The notes beneath the pieces were generated by a model. The model was not told the DNA's origin. It did not search any database and saw only the letters and a list, made by a program, of their open reading frames with translations. A DNA stretch of 64,000 bases from Candidatus Omnitrophota bacterium (lineage in GTDB: Bacteria > Omnitrophota > Omnitrophia > Omnitrophales > Aquincolibacteriaceae), in NCBI GenBank assembly GCA_016196545.1, contig JACPXM010000036.1:483-64482 (forward strand), written 5' to 3'. A program made the position numbers and the translations under genes. Below are positions 1-60,463 of this stretch, one piece after another. Position 1 is the first letter of the stretch. Every line of letters starts with the position of its first letter.

Positions 1-566
1 GCCAGAAAACTTTCCACTTGTCCCCGCGGCCGCGCCGGTGCGCCCTCCACAATCGCAACGTATTCCTTTTGAAATTGGTTCCAGTGTTCCTGAAGCCACA
101 ACTTTACTTTTTCCGTTTTCGCAAAGACCAGAAGCCCGGAAACATCCCGGTCCAGGCGATGCACCACAAAAACCCTTTTTTGATATTCCGGGCGCCTCGT
201 ATTTTGAGCCGCCTTTTTATTCAAATAATCGTTGACGGCAAAAATTGCGGTTTCGCGCTGGATTTTATCGGTGGCAATCGTAAGCAGGCCGGCTGGTTTG
301 TTGATAACGAGTAACGTCTCGTCCTCAAAAATAATTTCAAGGTGGAATTGAAGCGCGGAAGTCGTGGCCCGTGCCACGGAAGTATCGAGCATAAGTTCAT
401 CTCCGGGCCGCAGCTGAAAATTAAATTGCGTGGTAATTCTGTGATTGACGGAAATACAGCCGTGCTTCAAATGCTGTTTCAGGCGGGTTCGCTTGATGTC
501 CGGCAGGGCGGCCATCAAAAAATCCAGTAGTTCCGCAACCTTTTCAATTCTAATGATCTTTTTCAC
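1..566 (-). CDS. RluA-family pseudouridine synthase, N-terminal part (C-terminus lies left of the window)
   Basis: Absent from the ORF track because it runs off the window edge. My minus-strand translation from GTG 566 reads VKKIIRIEKVAELLDFLMAALPDIKRTRLKQHL (S4-like N-terminus), then LLVINKPAGLLT and VVHRLDRDVSGLLVFAKT (HRLD catalytic-Asp motif of RluA-type synthases). The start is uncertain: GTG 566 or ATG 515. Confidence 0.8.
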   Translation of the reverse strand, partial: MKKIIRIEKVAELLDFLMAALPDIKRTRLKQHLKHGCISVNHRITTQFNFQLRPGDELMLDTSVARATTSALQFHLEIIFEDETLLVINKPAGLLTIATDKIQRETAIFAVNDYLNKKAAQNTRRPEYQKRVFVVHRLDRDVSGLLVFAKTEKVKLWLQEHWNQFQKEYVAIVEGAPARPRGQVESFL

Positions 567-42301: not shown

Positions 42302-42970
42302 TTATTCGACTTTCAACTGGAGGATTAAATCCCCCTCGTGATGACAATGGGGGCATAATTTCCCTTGGCGTGTCAGCCTTAATTTTTGACCGCTTTTACT
42401 GCGCGCAGGAATTTTAACGGAAAGAGTTTTACCGCCGGGGATTCGAAGGGTTGCTTGTCCCCCCTTTTCCGCCTTTTCTTTTGAGATCTTTAAATTAATC
42501 ACAAGGTCAACGTCGAGAGCACTCGGTTCAGGATAATCTTCATCCTCGCTTCCGGCGGTGTAAGCTTGCGTCCATCTCCGGCGAGAAGCGCCCGCCCCGA
42601 GAAAATCCTCAAAAATATCGCCAAAATTCGCATAATTTCCTGTGGCATGAAACGTTGTTCCTCCCCGGCCTTGCGACGAAGAAAAATGACGGAGGAAATC
42701 CTCGAAATCAAATCCCTGGGCATCGGCGAAATTGCCAGCGCTGCCTCCGAAACGGCGCATTTGGTCATAGTGGCCACGGCGCTTTTCATCGCCCAAAACA
42801 TAATAGGCCTGCGAAACTTCCTTGAATTTGGCCTCCGCTTGCTTCAGATTCGCGGGATTTTTATCCGGGTGATATTTTATGGCCAGTTTGCGATAGGCCT
42901 TTTTGATCTCCTCAGGGGTGGCCCTTTCGGAAAGTCCAAGAGTTTGATAATAGTCCTTTTGAGCAACCAT
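42302..42970 (-). CDS. J-domain protein (short DnaJ/CbpA-like)
   Basis: 222 aa. J domain DYYQTLGL...[13 protein letters not shown]. No Zn-finger repeats. Confidence 0.85.
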
Positions 42971-42981
42971 GGAGAGCAGGT

Positions 42982-43299
42982 TTACCGCTTCTTAAATTCT
43001 TCCGGATGACGAAAATTAATCTCGAGCCGGCAATTTAAGGCATAGGCAATTCGGATTAAAAGACTGACATCAAAAACGAGGAGCTTTTTGGTCTCAAGCT
43101 GCTCGACGAAATTTTCATTTTCACCGATGCGCAGGCCAAGGTCTTTGCGGGACAAACCGGCCTTGAGGCGCAGCTCGATAATTCGCTCGACAATTTTTAA
43201 TTTTTCTAACTCTTCCTCAAAATCTACGTTTTTAAGAAAAGGTCCGAAAAGTTCTTCCGGTAAATCACTATTCGACTTGTTTGCATTTTCTTTTCCCAT
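42982..43299 (-). CDS. Small helix-turn-helix (XRE-like) protein
   Basis: 105 aa. [27 protein letters not shown] resembles an HTH_3 domain. Confidence 0.55.
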
Positions 43300-43315
43300 A
43301 GTGCTCCTCGTTTTG

Positions 43316-43474
43316 TTTCATTGATGAATTACTTCTGCAAAGGGAGGTGGCGGTTTCGCCCCCGTCAGTAACTTTGGGTATCCGCCTCCAGTAAAATCTC
43401 AGCTCTGGAGGGGCATTATACCAAAAAACTTCCGCTCTCGCTAAGAAACCTTCACGAATCCGATCCTGAGGGTC
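43316..43474 (-). pseudogene. Relic A: internal fragment of a large-serine-recombinase gene (C-terminal region)
   Basis: The minus-strand translation DPQDRIREGFLARAEVFWYNAPPELRFYWRRIPKVTDGGETATSLCRSNSSMK aligns with residues NPQDRIRMREAFLAKCEVFCYNGRTEVRFSWRRVPKLAEGSDTGHLHHFSVNSSFK of the intact recombinase at 55425..57272. No start codon, truncated at both ends. Confidence 0.8.
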
Positions 43475-43505
43475 TCGAAAAGGAAAAACTCGGGATGTTT
43501 AGTGT

Positions 43506-44228
43506 TCAAGAAAGTCTAAGCGCAAACTCAGACGTTTTGGTTTCACCTTCCGCCACCGTTATTTCAGCCGTCTGTGTCCCCAGTTTTTCGTGCCAAACCT
43601 CGATAGTGTAAGTCCCCGCCGGCAAATCTTTGATTTGAAAGCTGCCGTCGTCTCCGGTCACTGCATAAAATGGATGATCGAGCACATGAACATAAGAGGC
43701 CATCCAAAAGTGGACATCACAGCGCATTTTGATACCTATCTCCGGTTGCGCAAAGGTTTTGGCGGTCGTCATATCCTGTAGGGGCTGGGCGATGTTGAAC
43801 GGTTTTTCGACCTTGGATTCCGAGCGTACATTATGAAGGAGTGGATCGCTATTTCTAAAAATGACCTTTTGCCCGATCCGCGCGACGACCGCATGCGGTT
43901 CGAACATACATCCCTTTTGGTTAATCTCAACCGCTTCGCCAGGAGTGGGGGCCGTTGATGCCGGAGCGCCTTCTTTAATATAAACCAGAGCCCACTTGAC
44001 GGTTTGGTTCGGGTTGACCACCAAATCCTCTGTGACCGGCATCTTGTCACCGTGCATCACTGCGCATTGCTTTTCCGCGCCGAAGTTGAGCGGTTTGGGG
44101 GCCGGGACCTCCCCTTCAAAAATAACTTTGCCGTTAATTACGGCCGCTTGAACTGTAAGAGGCCCAACACAGCTCAATCCACACACAAGGAGCGCAAAAC
44201 CGATGTTCTTCAGTGGACTTGATCTCAT
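43506..44228 (-). CDS. Secreted cupredoxin-like protein with type-1 Cu ligand pattern plus carboxypeptidase-regulatory-like beta-sandwich
   Basis: 240 aa. Signal peptide, then ...FRNSDPLLHNV...KMRCDVHFWM (His...Cys-x2-His-x2-Met, amicyanin-like spacing). The C-terminal DGSFQIKDLPAGTYTIEVWHEKLG is typical of CarboxypepD_reg-like domains. Last gene of the nos cluster. Confidence 0.65.
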   Translation of the reverse strand: MRSSPLKNIGFALLVCGLSCVGPLTVQAAVINGKVIFEGEVPAPKPLNFGAEKQCAVMHGDKMPVTEDLVVNPNQTVKWALVYIKEGAPASTAPTPGEAVEINQKGCMFEPHAVVARIGQKVIFRNSDPLLHNVRSESKVEKPFNIAQPLQDMTTAKTFAQPEIGIKMRCDVHFWMASYVHVLDHPFYAVTGDDGSFQIKDLPAGTYTIEVWHEKLGTQTAEITVAEGETKTSEFALRLS

Positions 44229-44229
44229 T

Positions 44230-44703
44230 TCAATCCTCCCTTTTTAATTGATTCTGATTAGTTAAATTTAACAGTTCATTCCAAGCAACCAAGCGGCCTG
44301 TTTTCTCTTTGGCAAATTCCTGCGCTGCGAGATCGGACACAAAAGCCACAAAGCCATATCCCATCGGTGTCACAAGATCCGGAGAATAAACAAATAGCGC
44401 CTTTTCCCTTGCGATCCATCCCCCGCCGCTTGCATCCCGCACCCAGGAGCGAATTAAGCTCATGTTTTGATCTTTTTCGTAAACGGCGAGGCAGCCGATG
44501 TCGTCGAATTTTAGGAAATGACCGTCGTCTGTCACTGCGGCCGAGACAAACCGTTCCTCCTCAATGATCATCCGGCACTGCACGCAGAAATCGCGGCCGT
44601 AAGCTATCTTTGGCGGTTTGGTTAAATCGCGTTCTCCGCAGCCGGCAAGTGAGAAAACTGCCAAAAACACCAAGAGAATACCGCAAATTTTCAATCGGCG
44701 CAT
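44230..44703 (-). CDS. nosL: NosL copper chaperone lipoprotein
   Basis: 157 aa. Lipobox LSLAGC and CVQCRM motif. Confidence 0.85.
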   Translation of the reverse strand: MRRLKICGILLVFLAVFSLAGCGERDLTKPPKIAYGRDFCVQCRMIIEEERFVSAAVTDDGHFLKFDDIGCLAVYEKDQNMSLIRSWVRDASGGGWIAREKALFVYSPDLVTPMGYGFVAFVSDLAAQEFAKEKTGRLVAWNELLNLTNQNQLKRED

Positions 44704-45521
44704 CGGCGTCTAAAAAAAAGAAGCGCAGCACTTAAGGCTGTCAGTGTCCAAAAACACAGGACTCCTCCTAGAACCACCGCCAACCAAGGCCCAAAAACAT
44801 CCGACGCGTAAAGTCCCGCGGCGCCAAAAGATTCGATGCTTTTTTGCAGCGCTCCAATCACGGCCAATTTAAAAGACTGCGCCGGGTTAATCATGACAAG
44901 CCAAAAAAGTTCGGGAGGCGAAAGCCTCAGGACAATCGCTGTTCCCATGAGTCCCAAATCGCTTAAGAAAATAAAAGTGAACCAAAGGAAAAGCGCTGCC
45001 CCTACCGCCGTTGCTTGACGACGAGCGAAGACGGACGTGAGGAAACCCAAACTCAAAAAAGATAATCCTAGGAGCATGGTAAAGGCAACTAAATAAAGAT
45101 AATCGCTAATTTCTTGTGTGCCTGCAAAACGGGCGATGACAAGTGCGCTGGCGCCGAAACCTAAAAGAATCGTGGAAAGAAGAGCCAGGGCTGAGCCTAG
45201 GTATTTACCCAGAAATACTTCACCCGCGGTTACGGGCTGTGCCAATAGCGTAACCAGTGTTCCCTGCTCGCGCTCACCTGCAATGCTCATGGCACCCAAA
45301 AGCAAACCCATTAGAGGCACAATCAGGAGAACAAGATTTAAGAGACTCGCAGCCGTTCTGCCGAATCCGGATATCCCAAGCGAGCCCAGTCCTGCAAGGC
45401 CGAGAAGACTTAGGGAAACAGATAAAAGTGCGAAAAGAATCGAGACGACAATGAACCAGCGATTACGCCGCGCATCCCGCATTTCTTTGAAGGATAAGAG
45501 CCGTACGGCATTGAAATTCAA
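44691..45521 (-). CDS. nosY: NosY ABC-2 permease
   Basis: 276 aa with six hydrophobic segments. Positioned after nosF. Confidence 0.85.
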   Translation of the reverse strand: MNFNAVRLLSFKEMRDARRNRWFIVVSILFALLSVSLSLLGLAGLGSLGISGFGRTAASLLNLVLLIVPLMGLLLGAMSIAGEREQGTLVTLLAQPVTAGEVFLGKYLGSALALLSTILLGFGASALVIARFAGTQEISDYLYLVAFTMLLGLSFLSLGFLTSVFARRQATAVGAALFLWFTFIFLSDLGLMGTAIVLRLSPPELFWLVMINPAQSFKLAVIGALQKSIESFGAAGLYASDVFGPWLAVVLGGVLCFWTLTALSAALLFFRRRCAD

Positions 45522-46210
45522 TGTGTCCTCCTGGCGAGGTGCGGTCGAACCGAATCCGGCTGCCCCTCGGCTTTGATGACACCATTTTCCAGAATGAGGA
45601 CGCGGTCAGCATTTTTTCTTACTTCGGATGCGCGATGGGTGCAGAACACTAGCGTTTTGCCCGCGAGTCTAAGTCGATCCAGGGCGAGATTGAATTCGTG
45701 GCGGGTGTGTGCGTCAAGATTGCTGGTGGGTTCATCGAGAAAAAAAAGCGGCGGATCGGAAAGAAGTGCGATGATCAGAGCCAGCTTCTGTTTCATTCCA
45801 CCGGAGAGATTTTGTACCATCTGATGACGCGACGCTGACAGCTCCCATTCCTTTAAAAGTTTTTCCACACGCTCTCGCGCAACGCTACGAAGCTGAGCGT
45901 AAAAAGACACGGTTTCCCACACACTTTGATCTTGGTGCAAACGGATCTCCTGCGGGATATAACCGATCAAGGCGCGCGCCTCCCGGCCTTTACGCTTGAC
46001 ATTAAAGCCGTCCACTTCGACGGTCCCTTCAAACTGAATGATTCCCAAAAGACACCGCAAAAGCGTAGTTTTTCCGGCCCCGTTAGGGCCCCAAAGCGCA
46101 ACGGCTTCGCCCCGTTGCACCTCCAGGTCAACGCTTGAAAGTGCCTGAACTTTTTTGTAACGCTTACTCACTCCCGTGACCCGTATGAGCGGGCAAACCC
46201 TTTTGTCCAT
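45518..46210 (-). CDS. nosF: NosF ABC ATPase
   Basis: Walker A GPNGAGKTT, signature LSGGMKQ, Walker B LFFLDEP. Start taken at the internal ATG (MDKRV), 2 nt after the nosD stop. The track ORF extends to 46285. Confidence 0.88.
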   Translation of the reverse strand: MDKRVCPLIRVTGVSKRYKKVQALSSVDLEVQRGEAVALWGPNGAGKTTLLRCLLGIIQFEGTVEVDGFNVKRKGREARALIGYIPQEIRLHQDQSVWETVSFYAQLRSVARERVEKLLKEWELSASRHQMVQNLSGGMKQKLALIIALLSDPPLFFLDEPTSNLDAHTRHEFNLALDRLRLAGKTLVFCTHRASEVRKNADRVLILENGVIKAEGQPDSVRPHLARRTH

Positions 46211-46212
46211 CT

Positions 46213-47580
46213 TTAAAACCGATCCGAATTCTTTTTTAAGAAAGCGGCGAGCGGTAAAAAAAACAGGAACGACAGCACCCACCACGATGCGGGGCGAGGA
46301 GCGCTTTTGTTTGTGCGTATTCTGCCGGCCGGACGCATGAGCGGCCGCGGGTCTTCAAATTTAGGCGTCGGAGCAAATATCGGAAAAACCGCGGCCGCAA
46401 GGTCAATGGCTTGAGCCGAAGGACTTCCCAAAAAAATCTTAAGTTCATGAAAACGATCGGTCAAAAGCTCGAAGAATCGCATGGGTTTATAAGGGATATC
46501 ACCGATTCCATCGCGATCCGCGTCATATCCTCGATAGTTGCTCCAATAATTTCCCGTCCAGTCGTTGACCGTTTGGATGCTTGAGCCGTCCAGGAGCGTT
46601 TGCTCCACATTGTCGAGCACATAATTTCCTTCAAACTTATTTCGCACAGCGGTCGGCAAAAGATTAAAGCCGATATGATTATGCGCAATCACGTTTCTGC
46701 GACAAATCATGGCTTCACAGCCGTCCAGATAAAATCCGATTCGGTTGGAGGTAACAATATTTTCTTCAATCACCGCGTTCTTCATATCTTTAAATCCGAT
46801 TCCGAAACCGCTGGGGCCACGATTGTTCGCTACAATGTTGCCCCGTAACTTTAGTGCCTCGCTGTACATTAAATAGGCGCCCACAGAATTGTCAACGAAG
46901 CGGTTATTGACCACCTCCGCGTTACGGCAGTACATGAAATGAATGCCGTAGCGGCCTTGACGAAAATCATTGTCGCGCAACGTCATATCTTTTGAGTACC
47001 ACAGCACGACATCGCGACCACGTTCGGTACGGTTGTTTTCGATCACAACGCCGTCGCTGAACCAGACGCGGATGAGATCCCCACGCCGCGGAGTATCCAG
47101 CGCCTTGCCTTTGAAGGAATTTCCTCTGAGGACACCGCCCGGTGCCCGGCTCAGATAAACACCGAACAGCACATCCTCAAAACGGTTGTTCTCGATAAGC
47201 GGCCTGGCACCCGTTGCCAAAAGCCCCGAATTTTCGGACGCCAGAAGATCTCCAGAGTTCCTAATCACAAAACCGCGCATTACAACATCCGGGGCTTTAA
47301 TTGTGACGACGGTTCCTTTTCCCCCTCCGTCGATAACAGGCTCGCCCTGGCCCTCAAGCCGTACCGATTTTGTGATCATGAGAGGACCCGCGTAAAGGCC
47401 TTTTGTAACGAGGATGGTGTCACCCTCGGCAGCCTTTTCCAACGCCGCCGCAATCGTTGCATAAGCCGATGGGCTCACCGTTAAACTCTGAGCGTACCCC
47501 TCGTGAAGGAAACGCACGCTTGTCAGGATAAGAATAAGCGCCATACAAGGGATAACTTTTTTATTTATGGGAAGCCCCAC
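46213..47580 (-). CDS. nosD: NosD periplasmic beta-helix protein
   Basis: 455 aa. Signal peptide and repeated parallel-beta-helix units (NNRFEDVLFGVYL, NDFRQGRYGIHFMY, NRFVDNSVGAYLMY). Confidence 0.88.
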   Translation of the reverse strand: MGLPINKKVIPCMALILILTSVRFLHEGYAQSLTVSPSAYATIAAALEKAAEGDTILVTKGLYAGPLMITKSVRLEGQGEPVIDGGGKGTVVTIKAPDVVMRGFVIRNSGDLLASENSGLLATGARPLIENNRFEDVLFGVYLSRAPGGVLRGNSFKGKALDTPRRGDLIRVWFSDGVVIENNRTERGRDVVLWYSKDMTLRDNDFRQGRYGIHFMYCRNAEVVNNRFVDNSVGAYLMYSEALKLRGNIVANNRGPSGFGIGFKDMKNAVIEENIVTSNRIGFYLDGCEAMICRRNVIAHNHIGFNLLPTAVRNKFEGNYVLDNVEQTLLDGSSIQTVNDWTGNYWSNYRGYDADRDGIGDIPYKPMRFFELLTDRFHELKIFLGSPSAQAIDLAAAVFPIFAPTPKFEDPRPLMRPAGRIRTNKSAPRPASWWVLSFLFFLPLAAFLKKNSDRF

Positions 47581-48136
47581 TTTTAAAAAAACGCAAGGCG
47601 ATCACGGTTAAGGAAAGGAAGGCGGAGAGCATGCTTAGGCCGTGGCCAAGGCCGAAATTGGCGTCGGCATGAAACTGCGCAATCTTTCCCTGACCTAAAA
47701 GCGGGGGGACAAAAGGTTTTACTGAGGAACTCAACGCCGCGTGAGGATTTAGATGCAAACCAAAATCCCTCAGCCACAGATAGAGATCGACAGCAAAAAC
47801 TGCGGGTAGAACGATCGCTGGAAGGATGAAAAGCAGAGAAAACTTCCCTCGATTTAAAATCGCCAGCATCAAACAAACAACGATCACTGCGATGCCGGGC
47901 AGGGCGAATTTCTTTTCCAGCTTTGCGGCCTCTCCAAGGGGTCGCATGCCGATATAGTGATTGAGATTGTCAATCTCGCCGACATCACCCGTGACATGGT
48001 TCAAATAAACTTGGACGTGAAGTCCCTTGGGATACTGCGGTGCTTTGACCGTCAGATACCAGTAAGGAAAAAAAATTGATGAAAATACTGCTGCTGCGGC
48101 AGCCAGCAGCAGTATTTTCGCGATTCTCTCTTTCAT
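47561..48136 (-). CDS. Four-TM membrane protein between nosZ and nosD (NosB-like position)
   Basis: 191 aa with hydrophobic segments. The call rests on gene position in clade II-type nos clusters, not on a recognised motif. Confidence 0.5.
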   Translation of the reverse strand: MKERIAKILLLAAAAAVFSSIFFPYWYLTVKAPQYPKGLHVQVYLNHVTGDVGEIDNLNHYIGMRPLGEAAKLEKKFALPGIAVIVVCLMLAILNRGKFSLLFILPAIVLPAVFAVDLYLWLRDFGLHLNPHAALSSSVKPFVPPLLGQGKIAQFHADANFGLGHGLSMLSAFLSLTVIALRFFKSGASHK

Positions 48137-48138
48137 AG

Positions 48139-50157
48139 TTACTTCTTAGGCTTAACCATTAGATAACCGGCCATCTCCAAGTGCAGCGCTGAGCAGAATT
48201 CCAGACAATAATACGGGTACACACCTGGCTTATCGGCCGTGAATTCTATCGTGACGGTCTCGCCGGGCTCTATGCTGGCGGCGATGTTATAGCCGGCAAT
48301 CGAAAAACCGTGCGTCGCATCAATCGTTCGCTCAAGATTAGTGATATGCATCGTCACATGCTGGCCCTGCTTAATCTCGATGTGCTCAGGGTCAAAATGA
48401 CTGCGGATCACAGGCATGTAAACTTCGACGTTGTCGCCGTCGCGAACTATTTTGCCCTCCATAACCGCTTTGTCGCTCTTGGACTGAGTGAGAGTATTCC
48501 ATCCGACCTCAGGGTAGACATCCCAGGTCTTTAATTTATCCGCCTTGATGATCTGCGCATAGTGCGGTTCGCCCGAGCCCATCGGCATGTCATAAAGCAC
48601 CTTTAGAGTGTCACCGGTCTTCCCAATATCCACCAACTGAAGATTTTGCGGCAAGAGCGGCCCTAATTTCGAAAAACGATCCACAGACCATTTGTTGAGC
48701 GCGACCAAATACTTGCCTTCGGGATTCACCGTATCACCCCCGGTTGTGGCTAAATGCCCTATATTGAACTGAACGGGAACCTTGCCAACCAGCGTCCAAG
48801 GTTTCTCAGGCGCTTGGAATTTGTCATCGCCGAGCGTCCAGCGCGCGACAGCACTTTCGAGAAATAAACTTGTGTAGGCATAACCTTGATTGTCAAATTG
48901 AGTGTGAAGAGGTCCAAGGCCCAATTCCACCTGGGCTTCCATGGCCGCGTCGAAGCGAATGATCGGCACGCCGTACTCGTCGTTGCCCTCAAAGTCTTTA
49001 GCCTCGATGGCTTTGAGCATTTTATCAAAACTATAAATCGTCACATGCGGATCAAGTTTCCCTGCCACCACCATGAATTTGCCGCTCGGAGTGACATCCA
49101 CACCGTGAGGGCTTTTGGGCTCAGGAATGAAAAAGAGCACGCCTTCGTCAATGGCGGTCTTGAGGGAAATCAGTTTAAAGCCGTTTTTGGTCTCAAATTT
49201 GCTAGCTGCGATCAGCGCCTCGGCTTTTTTCCAATTGAAGACATGGAGATAATCCATGTCGCGCTGAGCGGTACCTGCTTCAAAAGGCGGGTTTCCCTTT
49301 TCGATACCGCCGGTGGCCATTTCAGTGTTAAAGGAATTCATAAAAACCCAGCCCTCACTCGGGCCTTTACCGGCATCGGCCAAATCCTGCCAATAGGGAG
49401 GAAGCTCGATCGCGAAAGAGTTTTCGATATCGATACGCCCTTGTTGGCGGTCGAATTTCCAGAAAGTCGCTAGTCCCCGATATTTTTCTTTGTATTGGGA
49501 AATAGGCGCGTACTCTCCGCCCAGGGGTTCGGCGTACTGTGCACCTTCGATAATATATTCGGTATTCGGCGTCACGAAACAGCCGCCGTGATCATTGTGC
49601 ATTAGCGTTCCATCCGCGAATTGTTTGGTTTCGAAATCTCTCAGATCAATGACAGCGATACGGCCATGCGACTTGTCGCCAATGAAAAGGAATTGTCCGT
49701 CATAGTCACCGTTTGTTTCGCTCAAAGCCGGGTGATGAGTGTCGGCCCATCCTACCTTCTGACTATCGCCGCCAATCGGCGCATTCATGAGCGGAGTTTC
49801 TTTCACACCAAAACCATATCCTTGCCAGGATTCAGCCTCAAAAACTGCGATGGTACGCAAAAGCCGCATCGACGGTAGGCCGATCACAAACATTTGACCG
49901 CTGTGTCCGCCGGAAGCGAACATCATATAGTCGTCATACTGGCCGCTGGGGACGAAGGTTGAAACGGCACCGAGAATGTCGTCTGGCTTAAGCCCTCTTT
50001 CATGGATGACTTTGGCAGCATCGGCTGGCAGTTTTGTCTGAAGCCCGGCCGCGGGGGATTGGGGTTCATCTGCCGCAAAACCGACGGAAACGGGCATCAT
50101 TAATAATGCAATTGTTAATAATAAAAAATCCGTGCATTGCAGGCACCCTTTATTCAT
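48139..50157 (-). CDS. nosZ: Nitrous oxide reductase NosZ, Sec-type signal (clade II-like), no cytochrome c extension
   Basis: 672 aa. The N-terminus lacks a twin-arginine. DTHHP CuZ histidines (WADTHHPAL). CuA site HGF...CLEFCSALHLEM at the C-terminus. Confidence 0.93.
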   Translation of the reverse strand: MNKGCLQCTDFLLLTIALLMMPVSVGFAADEPQSPAAGLQTKLPADAAKVIHERGLKPDDILGAVSTFVPSGQYDDYMMFASGGHSGQMFVIGLPSMRLLRTIAVFEAESWQGYGFGVKETPLMNAPIGGDSQKVGWADTHHPALSETNGDYDGQFLFIGDKSHGRIAVIDLRDFETKQFADGTLMHNDHGGCFVTPNTEYIIEGAQYAEPLGGEYAPISQYKEKYRGLATFWKFDRQQGRIDIENSFAIELPPYWQDLADAGKGPSEGWVFMNSFNTEMATGGIEKGNPPFEAGTAQRDMDYLHVFNWKKAEALIAASKFETKNGFKLISLKTAIDEGVLFFIPEPKSPHGVDVTPSGKFMVVAGKLDPHVTIYSFDKMLKAIEAKDFEGNDEYGVPIIRFDAAMEAQVELGLGPLHTQFDNQGYAYTSLFLESAVARWTLGDDKFQAPEKPWTLVGKVPVQFNIGHLATTGGDTVNPEGKYLVALNKWSVDRFSKLGPLLPQNLQLVDIGKTGDTLKVLYDMPMGSGEPHYAQIIKADKLKTWDVYPEVGWNTLTQSKSDKAVMEGKIVRDGDNVEVYMPVIRSHFDPEHIEIKQGQHVTMHITNLERTIDATHGFSIAGYNIAASIEPGETVTIEFTADKPGVYPYYCLEFCSALHLEMAGYLMVKPKK

Positions 50158-50310
50158 GATTTTGTCTCCTTTTTTTGTTTATAGTGTTTTTATTGTCGTC
50201 CACATCGGGTGACGAGTGCAGTAATTATTTTTATTGCACTTGGATTACATTCCAAGTATAGCATTGGAGATTTTAGAGTGCCTGAGAAGAGATGCGAGCG
50301 GGAACCGTGA

Positions 50311-50673
50311 TTAGAGCAGTTGAAACAACAACACTTTTTTTAGGTAATCGAAATCTATCGGCTTAGTAATGTAATCCGCCGCTCCTGCCGCAAAAGCGCG
50401 TTTGCCTTCTTCGTTATCATGTAGGGCGGTTACCATGACAACAGGAATACTTTTATCCAATTCCTTAATCTGCTTTAAAACGTCAATGCCGTCTTCTTTC
50501 CCAAGTAAAATATCCAATAAAATCAGGTCGGGCTTCGCCATTTTAATTTTTGATAGAGCCTCTTTACCTGTTAAGGAAGTTTCAACTTCGTAAGTCGTTA
50601 AAGACGTCCGTAAGATTTTCAAGACCTGTTCCTCATCATCCACAATTAAAATACGTTTCTTGTCAGGATTCAT
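50311..50673 (-). CDS. Single-domain CheY-like response regulator
   Basis: 120 aa. Motifs ILIVDDEE, LILLDILL and MVTA...K. Confidence 0.88.
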   Translation of the reverse strand: MNPDKKRILIVDDEEQVLKILRTSLTTYEVETSLTGKEALSKIKMAKPDLILLDILLGKEDGIDVLKQIKELDKSIPVVMVTALHDNEEGKRAFAAGAADYITKPIDFDYLKKVLLFQLL

Positions 50674-50779
50674 CGGCTTCTCTTTGGTTTTTAAAGTTTC
50701 GCATAAATTGCTCTGGCTCCGCCGTTAATTTCAAAATCTCATTTTCATCTAAGCAACGCTCCACGTGGAGATTGATGTC

Positions 50780-51610
50780 CTACACTAACTCGATAAGCAT
50801 TCCGTCAGGAGCGGGGCGGCCATCATGGTTCACAAGAATTTGGAGGGTAGGCCGCATAAAGGCAGTTTTTGTGACTTTCACCACTTTTCCGATGGCTTTT
50901 GTATTCAGTTGAACATACGTTCCAAGCGGAAAAAGCGAAACCACAGTAAGCAATGTTTTAAGAGGACGGCGATTAAAGCGTTGTTTTGAATCAACCGTTT
51001 CTTTGATCGCTGCATGAGGCAACATGGCATTTCGATAAGGTCGTGGATGGGATAATGCCTCATAGACATCGGCGACATGAATGACAGAAGCCAATTCATT
51101 GATTCCCTTTTCCTTCAAATGAGATGGATACCCCATACCATCGTCGTCCTCATGATGCTGCAAAATGGCATCTCTCACGCTTGAATCAATATCTTGTAAC
51201 TGATCAATGATTTCAGCCCCATGAACAGAATGCTTTTCCAGTTCCTCGCGTTCTTTTTTTGAGAATTTCACAGGACTGTTGACCAAATCAAACATCTTTA
51301 CCATACCAATATCGTGAAGCAGGGTTGCGACCGCAAGTATTTCGAGCTTTTCGCTTTCATAACCCAAATCTTGACCGATCAAAGAAGTCAAGATGACGCA
51401 ATTTACCGAATGAGCGAGAAGAAAATTATTAGGGGTAGAACGGATGCTGTATTGAAGAAAATCATCGGGACTCTGTAAGGTGTTCTGCATCAACAAATTC
51501 GCATAATCTCGAACCTCAGCGAAGATCAGATTTTCATTGCGCTTGACCTGATCAAATATCCTTTCGGCAAGATGCAGTCCTTGCGTATAAATCTCCAAAG
51601 TTCGAGTCAT
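50780..51610 (-). CDS. HD-GYP domain protein (c-di-GMP phosphodiesterase family)
   Basis: 276 aa. Motifs LLHDIGM and [11 protein letters not shown]. Confidence 0.88.
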
Positions 51611-54438
51611 GAATTTTTATCCAAAGCACTTCGCACATGTCCTGCCAAATCCATTGGCGCAAAAGGTTTCTGAACAAAATGAATGTTTGGGTCGAGTTTT
51701 TCTTGTTGGTCGATAGCGCTATCGGTATAACCCGACATAAAAACAATCTTAATCACAGGACGAATTTTTTTCACTTGATCGGCCAACTCTTTGCCCCCCA
51801 TCACAGGCATAATCACATCCGTTAAAAGAAGATGAAACTCCGTGTCAGGATGAGATTCTACAAACTTTAACGCATCGCTGCCATTGGCGGCTTCAAAAAT
51901 TCTATATCCTTGAGTCTTTAAGATTCGCACGGCAAGTTCCCGCACAAGCGGTTCATCTTCCACGATAAGGATGGTTTCGCTGCCTTTTTGAGTAACAGGC
52001 GCAACATCCTCCGCTACCCTTGATACTTTCTCTCTGACAATCGGCAGATGAAGATGAAACGTGGTTCCTTGTCCTAAAACGCTGCTAAAAGAAATGTGTC
52101 CTTTATTTTGTTTGATGACACCGAAACTCGTCGCAAGTCCCAAACCGCTACCTTTCGCTTTGTCTATGGTTGTATAAAAAGGTTCAAAGATATGCCTTTT
52201 TGTCTCTTCTTCCATCCCTATTCCTGTATCCGTGATTGAAATCAGGGCATATTCGCCAGGCTCAACATCTGGAAATTGCGCCTGAAATTTGCCGTCTAAA
52301 ACTACGTTCTCGGTTTTTACTGTAATTTTTCCACCCTGCGGCATCGCGTCCCTTGCGTTAACAAGAAGATTGATCAAAACTTGCTCAATTTGATGTTCGT
52401 CCACTTTTACAGTTCCCAATTCAGGCGAAAGCTGAGATTCAATCGTAATCGTTTCCCCAATGAGACGCTTGACCATCTTATCGAGATTGATAATCACTTC
52501 ATTCAAATTAACAATCATAGGCCGCATCATTTGCCGTCGTGAAAAACCAAGCAGTTGCGTTGTTAAGGATTGGGCGCGCTTTCCTGCTTTCAGAATTTCT
52601 TCAAAGTCATTACGGATGGCGTCATTCTGAGCTAAGGTTTGCACTCTCATCTCGGCATACCCGTTAATGACTGTTAGTAAATTATTAAAGTCATGCGCGA
52701 TTCCGCCCGCCAATTTGCCCACCGATTCCATTTTTTGTGATTGAAGGTATTGCGCCTCTAAACGTTTGCGATCGGTAATGTCCCGTATGGCCGCGGTTAC
52801 TAAGGTGCCGTCCGCGGATTCAAAGGGACTCAAACTGATTTCAACTTGAAATTCGCTTCCGTCCTTGCGAAGCGCCCACAGTTCCATCCCTGCCCCCATT
52901 GGGCGAGTATGAGGTTCTACGAAGAAGCTAGTGCGATGTTGGGGGTGATGATGGCGAAAGCGCTCAGGAATCAAAATTTCCACTTTTTGGCCCAACAACT
53001 CTTGTCGCGAATAACCAAAAAGTTGCTCCGTTTGAGAATTAACCAAAGTAATATCACCTTTTTGATCGACGATAACCATTGCATCGGGGGCGGATTCTAG
53101 GAGGCTGCGGAACTTTTCTTCCTCATTACGTATTATTTCATCCGCCTGCTTGCGTTCACTAATGTCACGGATAATCGCGGTGAAGAACCTTTTTTGATCT
53201 ATCGTCCATGAGGCAAGTGATAGGTCGATGGGAAATTCGACCCCATCTTTTCTTAATCCTACAAGTTCAAGGGTCTGACCAATCAATTTTGAAATACCTG
53301 TTGTTGTAATGCGCTTAATGCCCTCTGAGTGTGCATTTCGGAAACGTTCAGGCATAATAACTGTTAATGGCTGACCCATCATCTTTTTTGCAGCATGGCC
53401 GAATAATTTCTCGGCTTGGGGATTCCAATAGCGGATAATTCCCGTCTGATCGGCTGAGATAATAGCATCTTGTGCAGTTTCTACGACGGCTCGAAATTCC
53501 TCATTTAATTTTGAAAACTCTTTGGTTCGTTCCTCAATCTTTTTTTCTAATTCTTGGTTTACCGATATCAACTCCTGTTCAGCTTCCCAACGCTTGCTGT
53601 CTAATGTTGAAATCAAAGTTGCGCTTCTCCAGACGAGAACACTAATCACAGCACTACACATGAGAGTCAATATTGCGATGCCAAAATTAGTATCGTAGTA
53701 ACCCGCCCTTTGTCCCATTAGAGGAAGCCATCCAAGAATAACTATCAAACAGGGTATCCAGGGCAAGAGACGCCGTAGCATGATGCCTCCCAAACCATCG
53801 GCGCTGAGACGTGTCATCAATCCGTCAGAAGGTCTGCCAAAGAAGATACCGAGGCTTAAAATAAAAAAATTGATCGCTGTGTGAAAGGCTACTGAAACAT
53901 AGGGAGTTAAATGATAAAGACTCTCAACTCCATAAAAGTAACCTATCACGGCGACCCACGATGAACAGAAGAGCAAAAGGGCAAACATTTGGTGGATGAC
54001 CGCACGTTTGGACTGAAAAAAAATCAACGATGCCCCCGTCAATAAAAAATTGAAAGCAGTTGCAGGCGCCATACGGCCAGGATAAGAAATATCCTTATCG
54101 CTTCCTACAATTAGAGCCTGATCTATTCCGAAATTTAATCCGAATAGATATTCCATCAATGTTAATGCGCCTAGAGTCAATACGAAGGCTGCCAAAATCT
54201 TTGCTGCCCATTGAATATGGGTTCGTGAAGAACTCTCTTGCTGCAAAAATAAAGAAAGTCCTGCAAAAATGAACCCCATCGCGGCATTAACTTTCATGGT
54301 GGCCCAAATCGGAAGAATGCTTTTCAAAAATTCAACGTCAAAAAACCAACCGATAAGCACAAGGATGCCACTCCCCATGACCATGAGGCTTGCACTTTTA
54401 GAGACCGCTTTAAATCGCAAAACCATGTCTTTTCCCAA
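51607..54438 (-). CDS. Hybrid sensor histidine kinase (multi-TM sensor, 2 PAS, HisKA, HATPase, REC)
   Basis: 943 aa. About 8 N-terminal TM segments, PAS repeats, H-box [12 protein letters not shown]-box GSGLGLA, and a C-terminal REC ([13 protein letters not shown]). Confidence 0.9.
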
Positions 54439-54676
54439 TATATTTCTCCTTCCTGCTCATAAATGTATCGGCGCTTGTCTCATAATTTGCAGCTACATGT
54501 TTAAGGCCATGCTGATAGCTTGTTAAGCTCGGTCATGTTATGGGCTATTCGGGAGATAACGGTGCCTAACGCCTCAGTTTTTCACGAGTAAGGGAAAAGG
54601 GATACCTGGGATTTTATCGCATATACGGGAGGCCGTAGCGTGCCAGAGCGGAGGAGCCGTGCGGGGAATTAAATGC

Positions 54677-54863
54677 TCAGGAGGTGTAAGCCGGTTCGGA
54701 CGGTAAAGCAGGAATGTAATCGGTAGAAATTAAGACAAGTCGAGAGTCTTTATACTCATAGCTCTCAACTTCCAGAGGCTCGTTCTCGAACAACTGGTTT
54801 ACAATGAAAGTGGTGGAGGTGGGCGGTTTCGCCCCCGTCCGTATCTTTAGGAATCCGAAAATT
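54677..54863 (-). pseudogene. Relic B: frameshifted 3' end of a large-serine-recombinase gene
   Basis: The minus-strand translation reads NFRIPKDTDGGETAHLHHF. After a +1 shift it continues IVNQLFENEPLEVESYEYKDSRLVLISTDYIPALPSEPAYTS-stop. This aligns with RRVPKLAEGSDTGHLHHFSVNSSFKDEDLELERYVYENSQLILIERGQDA-stop of the intact recombinase. Homology ends abruptly at about 54863. Confidence 0.8.
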
Positions 54864-54908
54864 GGACCGTCAATTTTTTGCCCACGAATAACCTTCCTCC
54901 GAGCCGGA

Positions 54909-55163
54909 TCATGATTTTATTTGAGTTTCTAACTTCTCATAGAGCGACTCAGGGGCAACGTCAGCGCCATTGGGCCAAGAAATCGTTCCCCCTTCGATAC
55001 GTGCGGAAGAAAAGACTTTTTTGTCTTTGAGCGAAGAAAATATTCCGGATCTGCTTAGATACGAGGAGAAATCGATTTCACCCTTCATCCCATCATCGAA
55101 TTCGATATAGTAAATATATCCATCAAGATATCGAATCATTTTGACATCGTTTAATTGCCACAT
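54909..55163 (-). CDS. DUF2442 protein
   Basis: 84 aa. YIEFDDGMKGEIDFS...GGTISWPNGADVAPESLY is the typical DUF2442 pattern. Confidence 0.85.
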   Translation of the reverse strand: MWQLNDVKMIRYLDGYIYYIEFDDGMKGEIDFSSYLSRSGIFSSLKDKKVFSSARIEGGTISWPNGADVAPESLYEKLETQIKS

Positions 55164-55171
55164 AAGTCACC

Positions 55172-55432
55172 TCATTCCAAAGGCGTGATTTTCCTGATCT
55201 CTTTGTCCTTGCGCGCCAGCTCCCAATCCTCCGCCAACTCAGCTTGATGCAGATCAACCCATTCCCGCACAAGTCTCAAAGCCGTCCTCGACCCAAGATC
55301 ACCCATAAGAATGTTACCATGAAAATCTATCTTTGCTTGCTTGCCGCTGAACTCGGCATGAAAATGCGGGGGATTATGATCGTCGTAAAACATGCGAATA
55401 ATGATACCGAAGAATCGAGAAATTTCAGGCAT
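55172..55432 (-). CDS. DUF4160 protein
   Basis: MPEISRFFGIIIRMFYDDHNPPHFHAEF is the typical DUF4160 N-terminus. The ATG at 55432 overlaps the recombinase stop in ATGCCTGA. The track ORF starts 5 codons earlier. Confidence 0.85.
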   Translation of the reverse strand: MPEISRFFGIIIRMFYDDHNPPHFHAEFSGKQAKIDFHGNILMGDLGSRTALRLVREWVDLHQAELAEDWELARKDKEIRKITPLE

Positions 55433-57272
55433 CTTGACCTCGTTCAATCAAAATAAGTTGAGAATTTTCGTACACATATCTTTCGAGTTCTAAGTCCTCA
55501 TCCTTAAATGATGAGTTTACCGAAAAGTGGTGGAGGTGGCCGGTGTCGCTCCCCTCCGCAAGTTTAGGAACCCTTCGCCATGAGAACCTGACCTCTGTTC
55601 GGCCATTATAACAAAAGACTTCGCACTTGGCTAAGAAAGCTTCGCGCATGCGAATCCGATCTTGTGGGTTACCAATCACCACAACCTTTTGCGCCTCTGC
55701 CAGCCTTTCAAGAAATTGGCCCACTTCGGTGTCGATATTGACAGCGACCGTGGTGTGTCCGGTTGCGATCAATCCGTCCCGCTGAGCTTCCAACGTTTTC
55801 TGTCGACCCTTTAACTCTGTGACTTTATCTTCAGGTAAAGGCGTCTCAAATTTGGTGTATGCAAGGATCATGCGATCGATCTCTTTGGTAACCGACCTAA
55901 GTTCTTTTTCAATTTGCGCAAGCCGATCCGGTTTTGCGTCAAGGAAGCGGCGCATTTTTCGCTCAAGCAATTCCTTTACCTTCTCAGGCCGTATGAGATG
56001 TTGAATCCGATCCAAAATCCCATTCATAACCCTTTGATTAATAGCGTCCTGCTTCATCATCAGATTCTTGGTATCTCTGGCATGAGTCCCTTTATGTTTA
56101 TCACCTGAACATCGATAAAATTCATCAAACACGGTTTCGCCCGTGGTTTTAATAATACGCGCATATCGATGGCCATGAAAGCGGTTTCCACAAAAGCAGA
56201 CGAGCGCTCCGGCCATCAGATATTTCGTTCCGTTCATTCTTTTCCACTTTTTGCTCGAATATGATTGGAAGCGGCCTTGAACAGCGTCAAAAACTTCAGG
56301 CGAGATAATCTGCGGCACCTTTCCTTCGATCACAATCCATTCTTCTTTCGGCTTTATGCGGTCAATGAAAAATTCTAAGTCCGCACGATCAATACCCCGG
56401 TCTTTATTTTTGCGAAAAGAAGCTGTCTCGGTTCTTAACTTGCCTATTTTTACTGTTCCTTGCCCTTGCATTTGCCAGTCAAAGCAATCGACCCTCGCTC
56501 GTTTATTCCATCGAGTAACTCCCTTATAGACCGGATTCCTCAAAATTGCCCGCACCGTATAGCACGACCATCGACCGTCAGGGTTTCGATTGTGAGCGCT
56601 GTTTCTTTTCCGGGCATTCTCGCCGGATGGAATGCCTTGCTGATTAAGCCAGATCGCTATACTCTTATGTCCCCACCCCTTCAGCGACAGATCGAATATT
56701 ATTCGCACCACTTTTGCCTCCGGTTCGTAAATAATCAGCCATGTGCAATCGCTTGCATCTTTCGTTTTTCGAAACCCATAAGGCGTTACGCCGCCGACCC
56801 AACACCCCATTCTTGCTTTTCGCATCATTCCCTGAACGACTTTGCGTGCAAGTTCTCTGGAATAATCTGCTGCCATTTGACGAGCAACTGATTTATAAAT
56901 TTCGTCTGCAGAGCTCCCGTCATTTTTCAGATTTGTGAAATGAAGCTCTATTCCGAGGTCATCAAGCAAAACTTCATACCTCATCGCTTCTTTAACATCG
57001 CGCATGAAGCGATCATATTCGCCAAAAATAATCATTTGAAAGGGGCATGAAGGCGATTGCGCATCCTTCACCATTTGATGAAATACGCTTCGTTTTCTAA
57101 TCGACTTGCCACTAACAGGTTCTTCATATCGTTTAACAATTTGTGCCGGGTGCCTCCGGGCATAATCCAGAATTTCAAATTGCTGGCGCTCAAAGGAACC
57201 CTCCTGACGTTCGCAACCGTTTTCATCCTTGCCCGAAGTTGACTTACGAAGGTATACACCGGCGTTCTTCAT
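55425..57272 (-). CDS. Large serine recombinase (integrase)
   Basis: 615 aa. Catalytic N-terminus GVYLRKSTSG...RQ, a recombinase domain, a zinc-ribbon-like CFCGNRFHGHRY...YRCSGDKHKG, and a long coiled coil. Confidence 0.92.
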   Translation of the reverse strand: MKNAGVYLRKSTSGKDENGCERQEGSFERQQFEILDYARRHPAQIVKRYEEPVSGKSIRKRSVFHQMVKDAQSPSCPFQMIIFGEYDRFMRDVKEAMRYEVLLDDLGIELHFTNLKNDGSSADEIYKSVARQMAADYSRELARKVVQGMMRKARMGCWVGGVTPYGFRKTKDASDCTWLIIYEPEAKVVRIIFDLSLKGWGHKSIAIWLNQQGIPSGENARKRNSAHNRNPDGRWSCYTVRAILRNPVYKGVTRWNKRARVDCFDWQMQGQGTVKIGKLRTETASFRKNKDRGIDRADLEFFIDRIKPKEEWIVIEGKVPQIISPEVFDAVQGRFQSYSSKKWKRMNGTKYLMAGALVCFCGNRFHGHRYARIIKTTGETVFDEFYRCSGDKHKGTHARDTKNLMMKQDAINQRVMNGILDRIQHLIRPEKVKELLERKMRRFLDAKPDRLAQIEKELRSVTKEIDRMILAYTKFETPLPEDKVTELKGRQKTLEAQRDGLIATGHTTVAVNIDTEVGQFLERLAEAQKVVVIGNPQDRIRMREAFLAKCEVFCYNGRTEVRFSWRRVPKLAEGSDTGHLHHFSVNSSFKDEDLELERYVYENSQLILIERGQDA

Positions 57273-57276
57273 TTTT

Positions 57277-57603
57277 TTAGTTCCTTACCCCTTTCTCCGA
57301 CAGCCATAAGACAAATAAACTGTCAGCAACAATTTCTTCGACGGCTTCAGCTATACCTGACGGAATTTCTTCCTCGACTTCAACATGGGTAAAATCAATT
57401 TCGGGAAGCCGGGCCTTCCGGCGCCGATACGGCCCTACAATGACGATATCAAGTTGAACCCATTCCGTTACGACTACATCATCGAACAAAACCGAATTTC
57501 CAAATTCGCAATGGATCTGAAGAATCTCGGTGAACAACCCCACGGACTCTTCAAGATTTTTTGCATTGTCATTGACATTAGCATCATTATTTTCTCTCAG
57601 CAA
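57277..57603 (-). CDS. Hypothetical acidic protein (element cargo)
   Basis: 108 aa. No motif recognised. 4 nt upstream of the recombinase start. Confidence 0.5.
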   Translation of the reverse strand: MLRENNDANVNDNAKNLEESVGLFTEILQIHCEFGNSVLFDDVVVTEWVQLDIVIVGPYRRRKARLPEIDFTHVEVEEEIPSGIAEAVEEIVADSLFVLWLSEKGVRN

Positions 57604-57648
57604 CCCAGCCTCCTTTCCTGTAAGCGAATTTCTTTACCTTGCGGATAA

Positions 57649-58239
57649 TTATCGAGCTTTGGCTGCCATGTGCTGCCTATTTCTAGCCGCCACAAGCTTG
57701 TCGCGATCGTACGCAGTTCGCATCGATCTGCGTACCCTCCCCTTCATCATACGTTCCTTCCTCGCCGCTTTTTCACATTCCTGCATGAGTTGAATGATGC
57801 TTATCATCATTTTGAAAACCATTTTCCCGGTGGCTGTTGTAGTATCCATCTGCTCTTTCACAAAACATAGATTCACGCCATGTGATTCAAATTCACGGAT
57901 TATTTCCATCCCGAACTTTGAACCCCTACTCAATCTGTCGAAACCAGCAATGAGTATTGTTGAAACGTTCCCGCCTTCAACTTCCAATCTCAGCCTCTTA
58001 AGCTCAGACCGATCAGAAACCATCCCAGAAGCCGGTGCATCAAAGAAGATGTTCTCTTTCTGCAATTCGGGAAGATTCCTTATACGGAGCCATTCATTGG
58101 CTTGCGCGACTTGCGTTTCACATGAGGCATTGCCCTTCCCTTGCTCCGCGACTGCGCTCCTACCGTAAAACACAACCTTTCCATACCCGCTTCTTTTTGA
58201 TTTGTGATTTGTCTTACGTCTTTTTGTGGTTGTTTTCAT
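57649..58239 (-). CDS. Resolvase-domain protein with displaced nucleophile serine, no C-terminal HTH
   Basis: 196 aa. Resolvase core features DAPASG, AGFDRLSR and ATGKMVFKMM are present. The N-terminal motif is YGRSAVAEQ instead of Y-x-R-x-S-T-x-x-Q. Confidence 0.7.
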   Translation of the reverse strand: MKTTTKRRKTNHKSKRSGYGKVVFYGRSAVAEQGKGNASCETQVAQANEWLRIRNLPELQKENIFFDAPASGMVSDRSELKRLRLEVEGGNVSTILIAGFDRLSRGSKFGMEIIREFESHGVNLCFVKEQMDTTTATGKMVFKMMISIIQLMQECEKAARKERMMKGRVRRSMRTAYDRDKLVAARNRQHMAAKAR

Positions 58240-58302
58240 TTTTAAAACCCTCCCGATTTTATTATTCGATTTGAATCCTCTGTTAATTCATCCGAAATTT
58301 CC

Positions 58303-58605
58303 TCACTCGTTTTCTGAAAAATAATCAAAGCAAGCTGAATGCCCCATGATTTCTCCAAGCAAATCTTCGAATATTTTTTTCTTTTCCACGGGCAATGACA
58401 GAAGATATTCGATTCTGAACTTCTTCGCAGGCCGGGGTCCGTCCACGGTACCAAAATTTTCACGCAGAAAACTCTCAAGCCGGAACGTCAGCTCCTCAAT
58501 GATTTCTGTGGATACATTTAGATTCAGGTGTTCGCCCTTCGGATTCACTTCGGAATAAAAATTGAACTCGTCCGAATGGTTCAACATCAAAGTTGTCTCG
58601 TCCAT
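58303..58605 (-). CDS. Hypothetical protein (element cargo)
   Basis: Start taken at the internal ATG (MDETTLML) to avoid a 32-nt overlap with the helicase. No motif recognised. Confidence 0.45.
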   Translation of the reverse strand: MDETTLMLNHSDEFNFYSEVNPKGEHLNLNVSTEIIEELTFRLESFLRENFGTVDGPRPAKKFRIEYLLSLPVEKKKIFEDLLGEIMGHSACFDYFSENE

Positions 58606-58624
58606 AAGCTTGTCCTTTCCTTGG

Positions 58625-59923: not shown

Positions 59924-59938
59924 TTTTGGTTCCTTTTC

Positions 59939-60463
59939 TTAAAAAACAAGGTTGTCACTCTGTTCAGGATCAGCCTGTTTAGTTTTGAGTTTGGGTTTAA
60001 TTCCCATTTTCTCCATTTCTTCCTGCTCGTGCCGTGCTATATCCTCATCAAAGCTGTCGAAAGGAGACCCCATCCAGGTAATCCACGGCCCTGTCTGTTT
60101 ACCCGTCTTCTTGTCCGTACGGTACTCAAATATGCAAGCCACCTCACGATCACGAAAAAATTCCGTCCAGTTGACTTCTTCATCATCAGCCAGATTTTTT
60201 TTCTCAAATTCCTGATAAAGTTTTTCCGCACGACTGCCCGGAAACCAATCAATTCCAATGCGGTAAATAGCTTTTTTTGTAAATATCCTCCCATCCGCAC
60301 CCGAACCTTTTATTTCCGGGAATTCAACCTTGATGTCGATACAATTCTTGTAATTCTTCGCCTCGACAACATCGATGACCTTCCCATTTATTTTTTTTCC
60401 TATCTTTTCTGCTGGAATCGGAATCTCCACGTACTTTGCTCTCCTACCGATAATGTCACCCAT
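59939..60463 (-). CDS. Hypothetical protein (element replication module)
   Basis: 174 aa. No motif recognised. An acidic C-terminal tail is reminiscent of ssDNA-binding accessory proteins; this is speculative. Confidence 0.45.
   Translation of the reverse strand: MGDIIGRRAKYVEIPIPAEKIGKKINGKVIDVVEAKNYKNCIDIKVEFPEIKGSGADGRIFTKKAIYRIGIDWFPGSRAEKLYQEFEKKNLADDEEVNWTEFFRDREVACIFEYRTDKKTGKQTGPWITWMGSPFDSFDEDIARHEQEEMEKMGIKPKLKTKQADPEQSDNLVF

Follow-up and report, generated by a model that had tools for sequence, protein, structure and literature searches.

A predicted blue-copper protein at the end of a clade II nos operon from an Omnitrophota bacterium, a candidate electron donor to nitrous-oxide reductase

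The nos operon and its terminal gene

A 64,000-nucleotide stretch of DNA from a Candidatus Omnitrophota bacterium (hereafter the window; contig C4 of a 1.2 Mb source assembly that is 72% complete) was found to harbor seven open reading frames, all on the minus strand, which occupy positions 43506-50157 and follow one another in the order nosZ-nosB-nosD-nosF-nosY-nosL-CUP. The last of them, for which we use the name CUP (43506..44228; 240 amino acids, aa), is predicted to encode a secreted blue-copper protein, and here we evaluate it as a candidate electron donor to the nitrous-oxide reductase NosZ. The layout agrees with a first-pass annotation of the same DNA (made by a model from the sequence alone), which had read the block as nosZ, a protein with four transmembrane segments (4-TM), nosD, nosF, nosY, nosL and a cupredoxin.

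The nosZ product (48139..50157; 672 aa; Pfam nos_propeller and Cupredoxin_1) scored 838 bits against the model for the Sec-dependent enzymes (TIGR04246, cut-off 625), and stayed below the cut-offs of the Tat-type (TIGR04244; 392 bits, cut-off 625) and clade III models (190 bits, cut-off 700), so that by its family scores it classifies as a Sec-type clade II enzyme. As the first-pass annotation had noticed, its signal is of a non-Tat kind (no twin arginine within the first 35 residues) and it carries no cytochrome c domain; the C-terminus is the CuA motif itself, with no further domain behind it. The CuA ligands (H616, C651, C655, H659 and M662) are invariant in the 19 CUP-linked NosZ sequences over which conservation was counted, and so are nine propeller histidines, which are not assigned residue by residue to the seven CuZ ligands.

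The gene located directly after nosZ (47561..48136; 2-nucleotide gap) encodes a polytopic membrane protein of 191 aa that bears LNHYIGM at residue 58, a conserved stretch described for NosB (PMC9697520), a marker of clade II clusters. Thus, the '4-TM protein' of the annotation was rightly placed and can now be named NosB, while a hydropathy scan gives it three hydrophobic stretches in place of four; it matched no Pfam or NCBIfam model. It is followed by nosD (46213..47580; periplasmic beta-helix maturation protein; TIGR04247 at 398 bits, PF05048), whose start codon is uncertain (an ATG stands at codon 13), and by nosF (45518..46285; ABC ATPase; PF00005), for which the true start is likely the ATG at 46210, giving a 4-nucleotide overlap with the nosD stop. 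The nosY gene (44691..45521; ABC-2 permease; PF12679) overlaps nosF by 4 nucleotides, nosL (44230..44703; PF05573) encodes a copper chaperone lipoprotein with the lipobox LAGC, and CUP starts 1 nucleotide past the nosL stop. The annotation had also remarked on what the block lacks, and we concur: none of the seven proteins contains a CxxCH motif, and scans with the Pfam and NCBIfam libraries recovered no NosR/NosX and no NosG/NosH/NosC genes within it.

Every named relative of the window's RimO protein belongs to Candidatus Omnitrophota, and the window DNA is present in groundwater metagenomes (DNA runs of one study), where the contigs have a depth of ~5x that is even over the operon and its flanks. 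Since a single one of these contigs spans positions 42901-44440 (i.e. the CUP end of the operon) and the depth is even, a chimeric join at this end is argued against; at the other end, none of the groundwater contig pieces among those listed spans 50166-50334.

Predicted fold and copper ligands of CUP

The structure of CUP was modelled with AlphaFold2 from a 41-sequence alignment (predicted local distance difference test, pLDDT, 89.4), and this model was used instead of a single-sequence prediction (pLDDT 36.5). Residues 97-184 superimpose on plastocyanin with Z 11.4 and a root-mean-square deviation (rmsd) of 1.4 Å over 84 residues, and the same domain matches amicyanin with Z 10.9; Foldseek likewise placed amicyanin and pseudoazurin among the high ranks, with a probability of 1.00 for the cupredoxin fold. 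By sequence, CUP gave only weak profile matches to PDB entries (5fc9, E 0.016; plastocyanin, E 0.08). A second alignment, to carboxypeptidase D domain II, extends across the model range 30..240 (Z 11.3, rmsd 1.9 Å, 79 residues). Because this match spans 30..240 and the first strand of the sandwich precedes the cupredoxin, the latter is nested, not appended, and the model depicts CUP as a plastocyanin/amicyanin-type cupredoxin inserted into a carboxypeptidase-regulatory-like beta-sandwich. The first-pass annotation had therefore recognized both domains correctly, and it is the end-to-end fusion that it proposed which gives way to an insertion (first strand 29-38, rest of the sandwich 186-240).

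Read from the N-terminus (all coordinates on the minus strand), the protein begins with a Sec-type signal peptide (aa 1-28; 44145..44228) that is probably cleaved after VQA, and whose counterparts in the alignment are hydrophobic, variable and end in A-x-A. The first sandwich strand (aa 29-38; 44115..44144), assigned by DSSP and covered by the carboxypeptidase D domain II match, leads into an insert (aa 39-96; 43941..44114) with a helix that carries C55 and H59 and with a probable second sandwich strand (81-86, by DSSP). Then come the cupredoxin domain (aa 97-184; 43677..43940), which holds the type-1 copper (T1Cu) ligands together with C107 and H112, and the rest of the sandwich (aa 186-240; 43509..43673), in which W212-H213-E214 is invariant and to which PF13620 (CarboxypepD_reg) relates; this family matched CUP at 39 bits (cut-off 32.3), with only profile positions 30-81 covered. 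The window copy has no lipobox and bears a plain signal peptide, unlike two nos-type copies from Gemmataceae (L033, L050) and several cox-type ones (L041-L044 among the N-termini examined; see below for the two types), which have a lipobox and a long low-complexity linker and would therefore be membrane-tethered lipoproteins.

The ligand pattern proposed in the annotation was borne out, with HNV at residue 132 and C-D-V-H-F-W-M at 170-176 (the C-x2-H-x2-M spacing of amicyanin). The codons of the four ligands lie at 43833-43835 (H132), 43719-43721 (C170), 43710-43712 (H173) and 43701-43703 (M176), and all four residues are invariant in 47 of the 47 CUP relatives, drawn from three clades, over which residue conservation was counted. 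In the model, strand 132-137 starts with His132 and strand 163-170 ends with Cys170, with both His173 and Met176 in the loop before strand 177-183; the predicted fold is thus that of a type-1 cupredoxin, and the ligands take the canonical cupredoxin positions relative to its strands. From this we infer that CUP binds one copper via His132, Cys170, His173 and Met176.

A further set of residues is conserved to a comparable degree: C55, C107 and H213 in all 47 relatives, H59 in 45 and H112 in 44 of them. The first pair of this set, C55/H59, falls within 43941-44114, C107/H112 within 43893-43910, and H213 at 43590-43592. The simplest reading is that C55 and C107 could form a structural disulphide, and a second metal site could be the alternative. 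A Rieske-like or haem site made of C55, H59, C107 and H112 was considered too and rejected as unlikely, given export by Sec and a spacing that does not fit.

Distribution of CUP beside NosZ and the haem-copper oxidases

The CUP family, which has no name in the ESM Atlas, comprised 2784 family representatives in a profile search at E up to 1e-30, some of them giant repeated beta-sandwich proteins. A synteny scan restricted to one genome per prokaryotic species returned 48 CUP loci, half of which (24) show the order nosZ-B-D-F-Y-L-CUP, either whole or cut by a contig end; in two further loci CUP lies beside a nos cluster that was mapped as inverted or only partly detected. These nos-linked loci are spread over at least six phyla, namely Omnitrophota, Planctomycetota, Fervidibacterota/Armatimonadota, Auribacterota and Acidobacteriota, and the position of CUP is kept among phyla despite divergence down to ~47% identity.

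We scanned 301 genomes of the phylum Omnitrophota for NosZ and CUP, and found the former in nine of them. CUP matches of at least 358 bits occurred in exactly these nine genomes and in none of the other 292 (the next score being 297 bits). Among the eight NosZ genomes other than that of the window, six have CUP on the same contig, 3.9-5.3 kb downstream of nosZ, and in two the genes are split by contig ends. The window genome encodes the nos-type CUP only; neither COX1 nor a cox-type CUP was found in its 72%-complete assembly. Thus, the match between nos-type CUP and nosZ is perfect within the phylum sample and CUP follows nosL in several phyla, which bears out the earlier reading on the co-occurrence check that it had suggested. 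Moreover, no NosGH/NosC/NosR module adjoins the cluster in the relatives examined.

Gemmataceae (151 genomes sampled) offered a comparison within a single family. NosZ was detected in five genomes, three of which encode a nos-type CUP (~4.5 kb past nosZ in G301 and G405, whose contigs are long enough). The remaining two have no nos-type CUP, and instead carry a monohaem cytochrome c directly before nosZ and a pentahaem cytochrome beside it; in these CUP-less clusters (L083:4121-7793 and L084:3361-6837) the order is nosZ-D-F-L-Y, the pentahaem cytochrome is divergent, and nosB, after nosY, was detected only in L083. Gemmataceae nos clusters thus carry either CUP or cytochrome c, not both, and such a swap inside one family is what one would expect if CUP does the job of the cytochrome.

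The remaining members of the family form one clade (support 99/99) within haem-copper oxidase operons, in which the gene order is dihaem cytochrome c - CUP - CoxB (short, without haem domain) - CoxA - CtaA/CtaB - Sco1. In many Omnitrophota the free CUP is followed by a protein of ~500 aa that consists of a complete CUP domain, two helices and the CuA domain of CoxB. The T1Cu and CuA motifs lie in one uninterrupted frame, ~330 residues apart, in 17 of the 19 frames inspected (17 genomes; L064:5731-7221 on the minus strand, L065:3924-5519 on the plus strand, and L066-L082), usually next to a free CUP copy, and the topology of the fusion puts both domains in the periplasm. The fusion ties the CUP family to CuA centers, the one feature common to NosZ and CoxB. 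In one genome (G022), genes for a cytochrome b C-terminal-like protein and for a multihaem cytochrome c of 935 aa stand ahead of the fusion operon.

A distant CUP clade was encountered in Ignavibacteriota (L048, L049 and L051, ~10001-18541), with 31-35% identity and the ligands kept. There, three cytochrome c genes come after CUP, together with a gene for the copper pump CcoI, a small gene placed where that of CcoS would be expected, and one for a cbb3 oxidase in which CcoN and CcoO are fused (CcoNO).

Proposed electron transfer to NosZ and its alternatives

We consider CUP to be, more likely than not, a dedicated periplasmic type-1 copper electron carrier for the CuA center of NosZ. Once exported by Sec and loaded with copper, it would be reduced by some periplasmic or membrane donor and would then pass single electrons to CuA, standing in for the c-type cytochromes that may do so elsewhere (NosC1/C2, the fused haem domain of cNosZ, or the cytochrome c before nosZ in Bacteroidota-type clusters). 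The beta-sandwich would probably serve as a rigid docking or spacing module; its role, as well as the direction and the partner of the electron transfer, are what we infer from the data above. The annotation had left the choice between a dedicated donor and a copper-delivery component. We favor the donor on two grounds: members of the sister clade are fused in frame to CoxB, the CuA subunit of cytochrome oxidase, and in Gemmataceae a nos cluster has CUP or cytochrome c but not the two together.

Several observations weigh against a donor role. Within the 72%-complete genome no NrfD, NapH/NosR-type Fer4_5, cytochrome b or COX1 was found that might act upstream of CUP; PF12801 (NosR/NosH/NapH) gave no match either, which at this completeness does not prove its absence from the organism. 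The cupredoxin part of CUP is invisible to Pfam and NCBIfam (no Copper-bind-type match), and the second conserved residue set is superfluous for a simple carrier. The Ignavibacteriota clade stands beside a cbb3 oxidase, which is without CuA, and beside the copper pump CcoI. Lastly, CUP sits 1 nucleotide past nosL, in the maturation half of the operon, a place that also suits an assembly factor. A complex prediction for NosZ (residues 60-672) and CUP (29-240), scored 0.00 without controls, is counted neither for nor against this role.

The last of these objections leads to a copper chaperone or insertase, unlikely in our view, that would load the CuA of NosZ (or, for the paralogue, of CoxB) and so complement NosL, which serves CuZ. 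This explanation is kept alive by the position behind nosL and by the extra Cys/His set, as the invariant C55 and C107 together with the near-invariant H59 and H112 could make a second, exchangeable metal site. It also draws on CuA being common to both partner enzymes, on the grouping of the cox-type paralogues with the assembly genes Sco1, CtaA and CtaB, and on the Ignavibacteriota homologue that adjoins CcoI/CcoS. The conserved site, however, is the rigid His-Cys-His-Met arrangement of electron-transfer cupredoxins and not the His/Met site of PCuAC or the CxxxC-His of Sco: CUP matched neither PF04314 (PCuAC) nor PF02630 (Sco1/SenC) at E up to 0.01, and neither the H(M)x10Mx21HxM nor the CxxxC...H motif was found in its sequence. 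Besides, H59 and H112 are substituted in a few members; a lasting fusion to the client, as present in 17 genomes, would be unlikely for a chaperone that needs to act only once; and the cytochrome c that takes the place of CUP in sister nos clusters points to redox work and not to the delivery of metal.

Doubtful as well, and a shade more so, is the idea of CUP as an accessory subunit, bound tightly to NosZ or to the oxidase, that maintains the activity of the enzyme (by stabilization or by reductive re-activation of its copper centers) without being the main shuttle. It resembles what was proposed for NosR with clade I NosZ and for AcoP with cytochrome oxidase, the latter being known to copurify with cytochrome c oxidase and to stabilize it (PMC5982212). 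The rigidity of the sandwich and its covalent tie to CoxB speak for a stable complex over a diffusing shuttle, and NosR is missing from these clusters. Yet a free CUP is kept beside the fused one in many operons, and its either/or relation to the monohaem cytochrome c argues for a donor; furthermore, a bound T1Cu relay would still be an electron-entry module, whereby this explanation overlaps with that of CUP as the donor.

The operon, CUP included, was probably acquired as one unit by horizontal transfer, since the 65 other genomes sampled from the same family as the window yielded no nosZ and since the G+C content of the nos block (~0.50-0.51, 44000-50000) is higher than that of the DNA upstream of nosZ (0.42-0.47, 50001-64000). 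These same two observations are all that speaks for CUP being a mere hitch-hiker at the end of a mobile nos island, unrelated to NosZ, which we regard as highly improbable in view of the perfect co-occurrence (9/9 with nosZ, 0/292 without), the position conserved among phyla down to ~47% identity, and a second CuA enzyme to which the CUP family is likewise linked and fused.

The proposed donor role of CUP can be set against known systems. Pseudoazurin and azurin are periplasmic electron donors to clade I NosZ (e.g., in Paracoccus and Achromobacter), and together with amicyanin and plastocyanin they share with CUP the type-1 cupredoxin fold and the His-Cys-His-Met ligands (structural Z 10-11.4). 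However, all of these are single-domain proteins that the Pfam Copper-bind models see and that are not known to be encoded in nos operons, whereas CUP closes a clade II nos operon, is nested in a sandwich, has the extra Cys/His insert and is missed by the Pfam cupredoxin models. The AcoP cupredoxin of Acidithiobacillus ferrooxidans is encoded in an oxidase operon that holds the genes of a whole respiratory pathway; it copurifies with cytochrome c oxidase and exchanges electrons with a dihaem cytochrome (PMC5982212). It was proposed to link this cytochrome to the oxidase (PMC5982212, PMC4059628), and the cox-type CUP likewise lies between a dihaem cytochrome c gene and coxB. In contrast to CUP, with its sandwich scaffold and nos-specific branch, AcoP, which comes from an acidophile, is a green copper protein that has one domain, is anchored in the membrane and has no known link to nosZ; it was absent from the listed fold matches of CUP.

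Donors may also be built into the enzyme that they feed. Cytochrome c is fused to NosZ in the cNosZ of Campylobacterota, and a cytochrome c domain is fused to subunit II in the caa3 oxidases, a logic that the CUP::CoxB fusion of 17 genomes follows, with the difference that a blue-copper domain stands at the CoxB N-terminus. A donor module is joined to its enzyme in NirK too, forms of which have a cupredoxin or a haem domain tethered to them (PMC8301774). For NosZ, CUP stays a separate protein, and no CUP-NosZ fusion was recovered in a word-limited search for longer CUP relatives (a weak negative).

The Wolinella-type clade II module (NosG/NosH/NosC1/NosC2), of iron-sulphur and haem proteins, links to menaquinol, according to Hein et al. 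2017 as cited in PMC11409646 and PMC13685413. The job proposed for the module is the same (electrons to a Sec-type NosZ) and its cluster also has NosB; yet none of its parts occurs in the block studied here, Fer4_5 was not found in the genome, and CUP would be the last soluble step only. For clade II, a 2026 review gives only NosGH and cytochromes (PMC13685413), and we found no paper on this CUP family or on a cupredoxin/carboxypeptidase-regulatory protein in bacterial clade II nos clusters.

Organisms with clade II NosZ are thought to be the main biological sink of nitrous oxide (N2O) in many soils and waters, and to our knowledge the route by which electrons reach NosZ is unknown in many clusters without NosGH/NosC and NosR. 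A blue-copper donor encoded by the cluster itself offers a testable answer for a widespread cluster type (Omnitrophota, Planctomycetota, Fervidibacterota and others), and the presence of CUP would allow copper-wired and haem-wired nos clusters to be told apart in genomes. As the family appears to replace cytochrome c at A-type oxidases too (including a natural fusion to subunit II), it would represent a donor directed at CuA centers in general, and one that today's domain databases do not recognize.

With regard to what may lie before CUP in the chain, the window genome encodes two Nuo-like complexes, a monohaem cytochrome c (contig C1) and a four-gene cluster (G000, contig C50:62455-66157; L003:8456-12157) composed of a 4-TM protein, a heptahaem cytochrome, a 691-aa protein and a 110-aa monohaem protein in which Pfam finds nothing. 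The 691-aa protein has one N-terminal hydrophobic segment and no family match, and we read it as outer-membrane barrel-like; the cluster as a whole resembles a porin-cytochrome conduit. A similar multihaem cluster is found ~6 kb from the nos operon in two relatives (L005 and L006), adjoining CcsA/ResB in the former. One could envisage, as a rather speculative extension that we hold for improbable, that N2O reduction bypasses the quinone pool, with electrons passing from the porin-cytochrome-like module (heptahaem cytochrome, barrel-like protein and monohaem cytochrome) to CUP and on to NosZ, and with the extra Cys pair and flanking His acting as a second functional site. If this were true, CUP would be a hub that lets the cell respire N2O with external donors (a partner cell or minerals). 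The same genome carries NirB and NirD (the NADH nitrite reductase) next to a molybdopterin oxidoreductase and a fused iron-sulphur/DmsC-like anchor (contig C2:4110-10805; L062:2110-8806), a gene content by which the organism may also reduce nitrate and nitrite to ammonium.

Around and within the operon, a few minor features were recorded. The intergenic leader of nosZ (50158..50310, minus strand) contains the ribosome-binding site AGGAG, and no promoter was identified in it, as the consensus scan for promoters and terminators performed no better than on shuffled sequence. A 16-bp stem-loop with a T-rich run (48081-48119, minus strand) falls just past nosZ, within the first 60 nucleotides of nosB, where it could attenuate read-through into the accessory genes that follow nosZ, or could arise merely from the Ala/Leu-rich signal sequence encoded there. 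In the window, the genes upstream of nosZ (50311-54438) encode a response regulator, an HD-domain protein and a PAS histidine kinase, and downstream of CUP lies a 105-aa helix-turn-helix gene (42982-43299). In relatives (L005:173-580 and L005:7531-8766, with equivalents in 7-11 loci), the flanking genes encode an Rrf2-family regulator before nosZ and an NnrS-like membrane protein after CUP.

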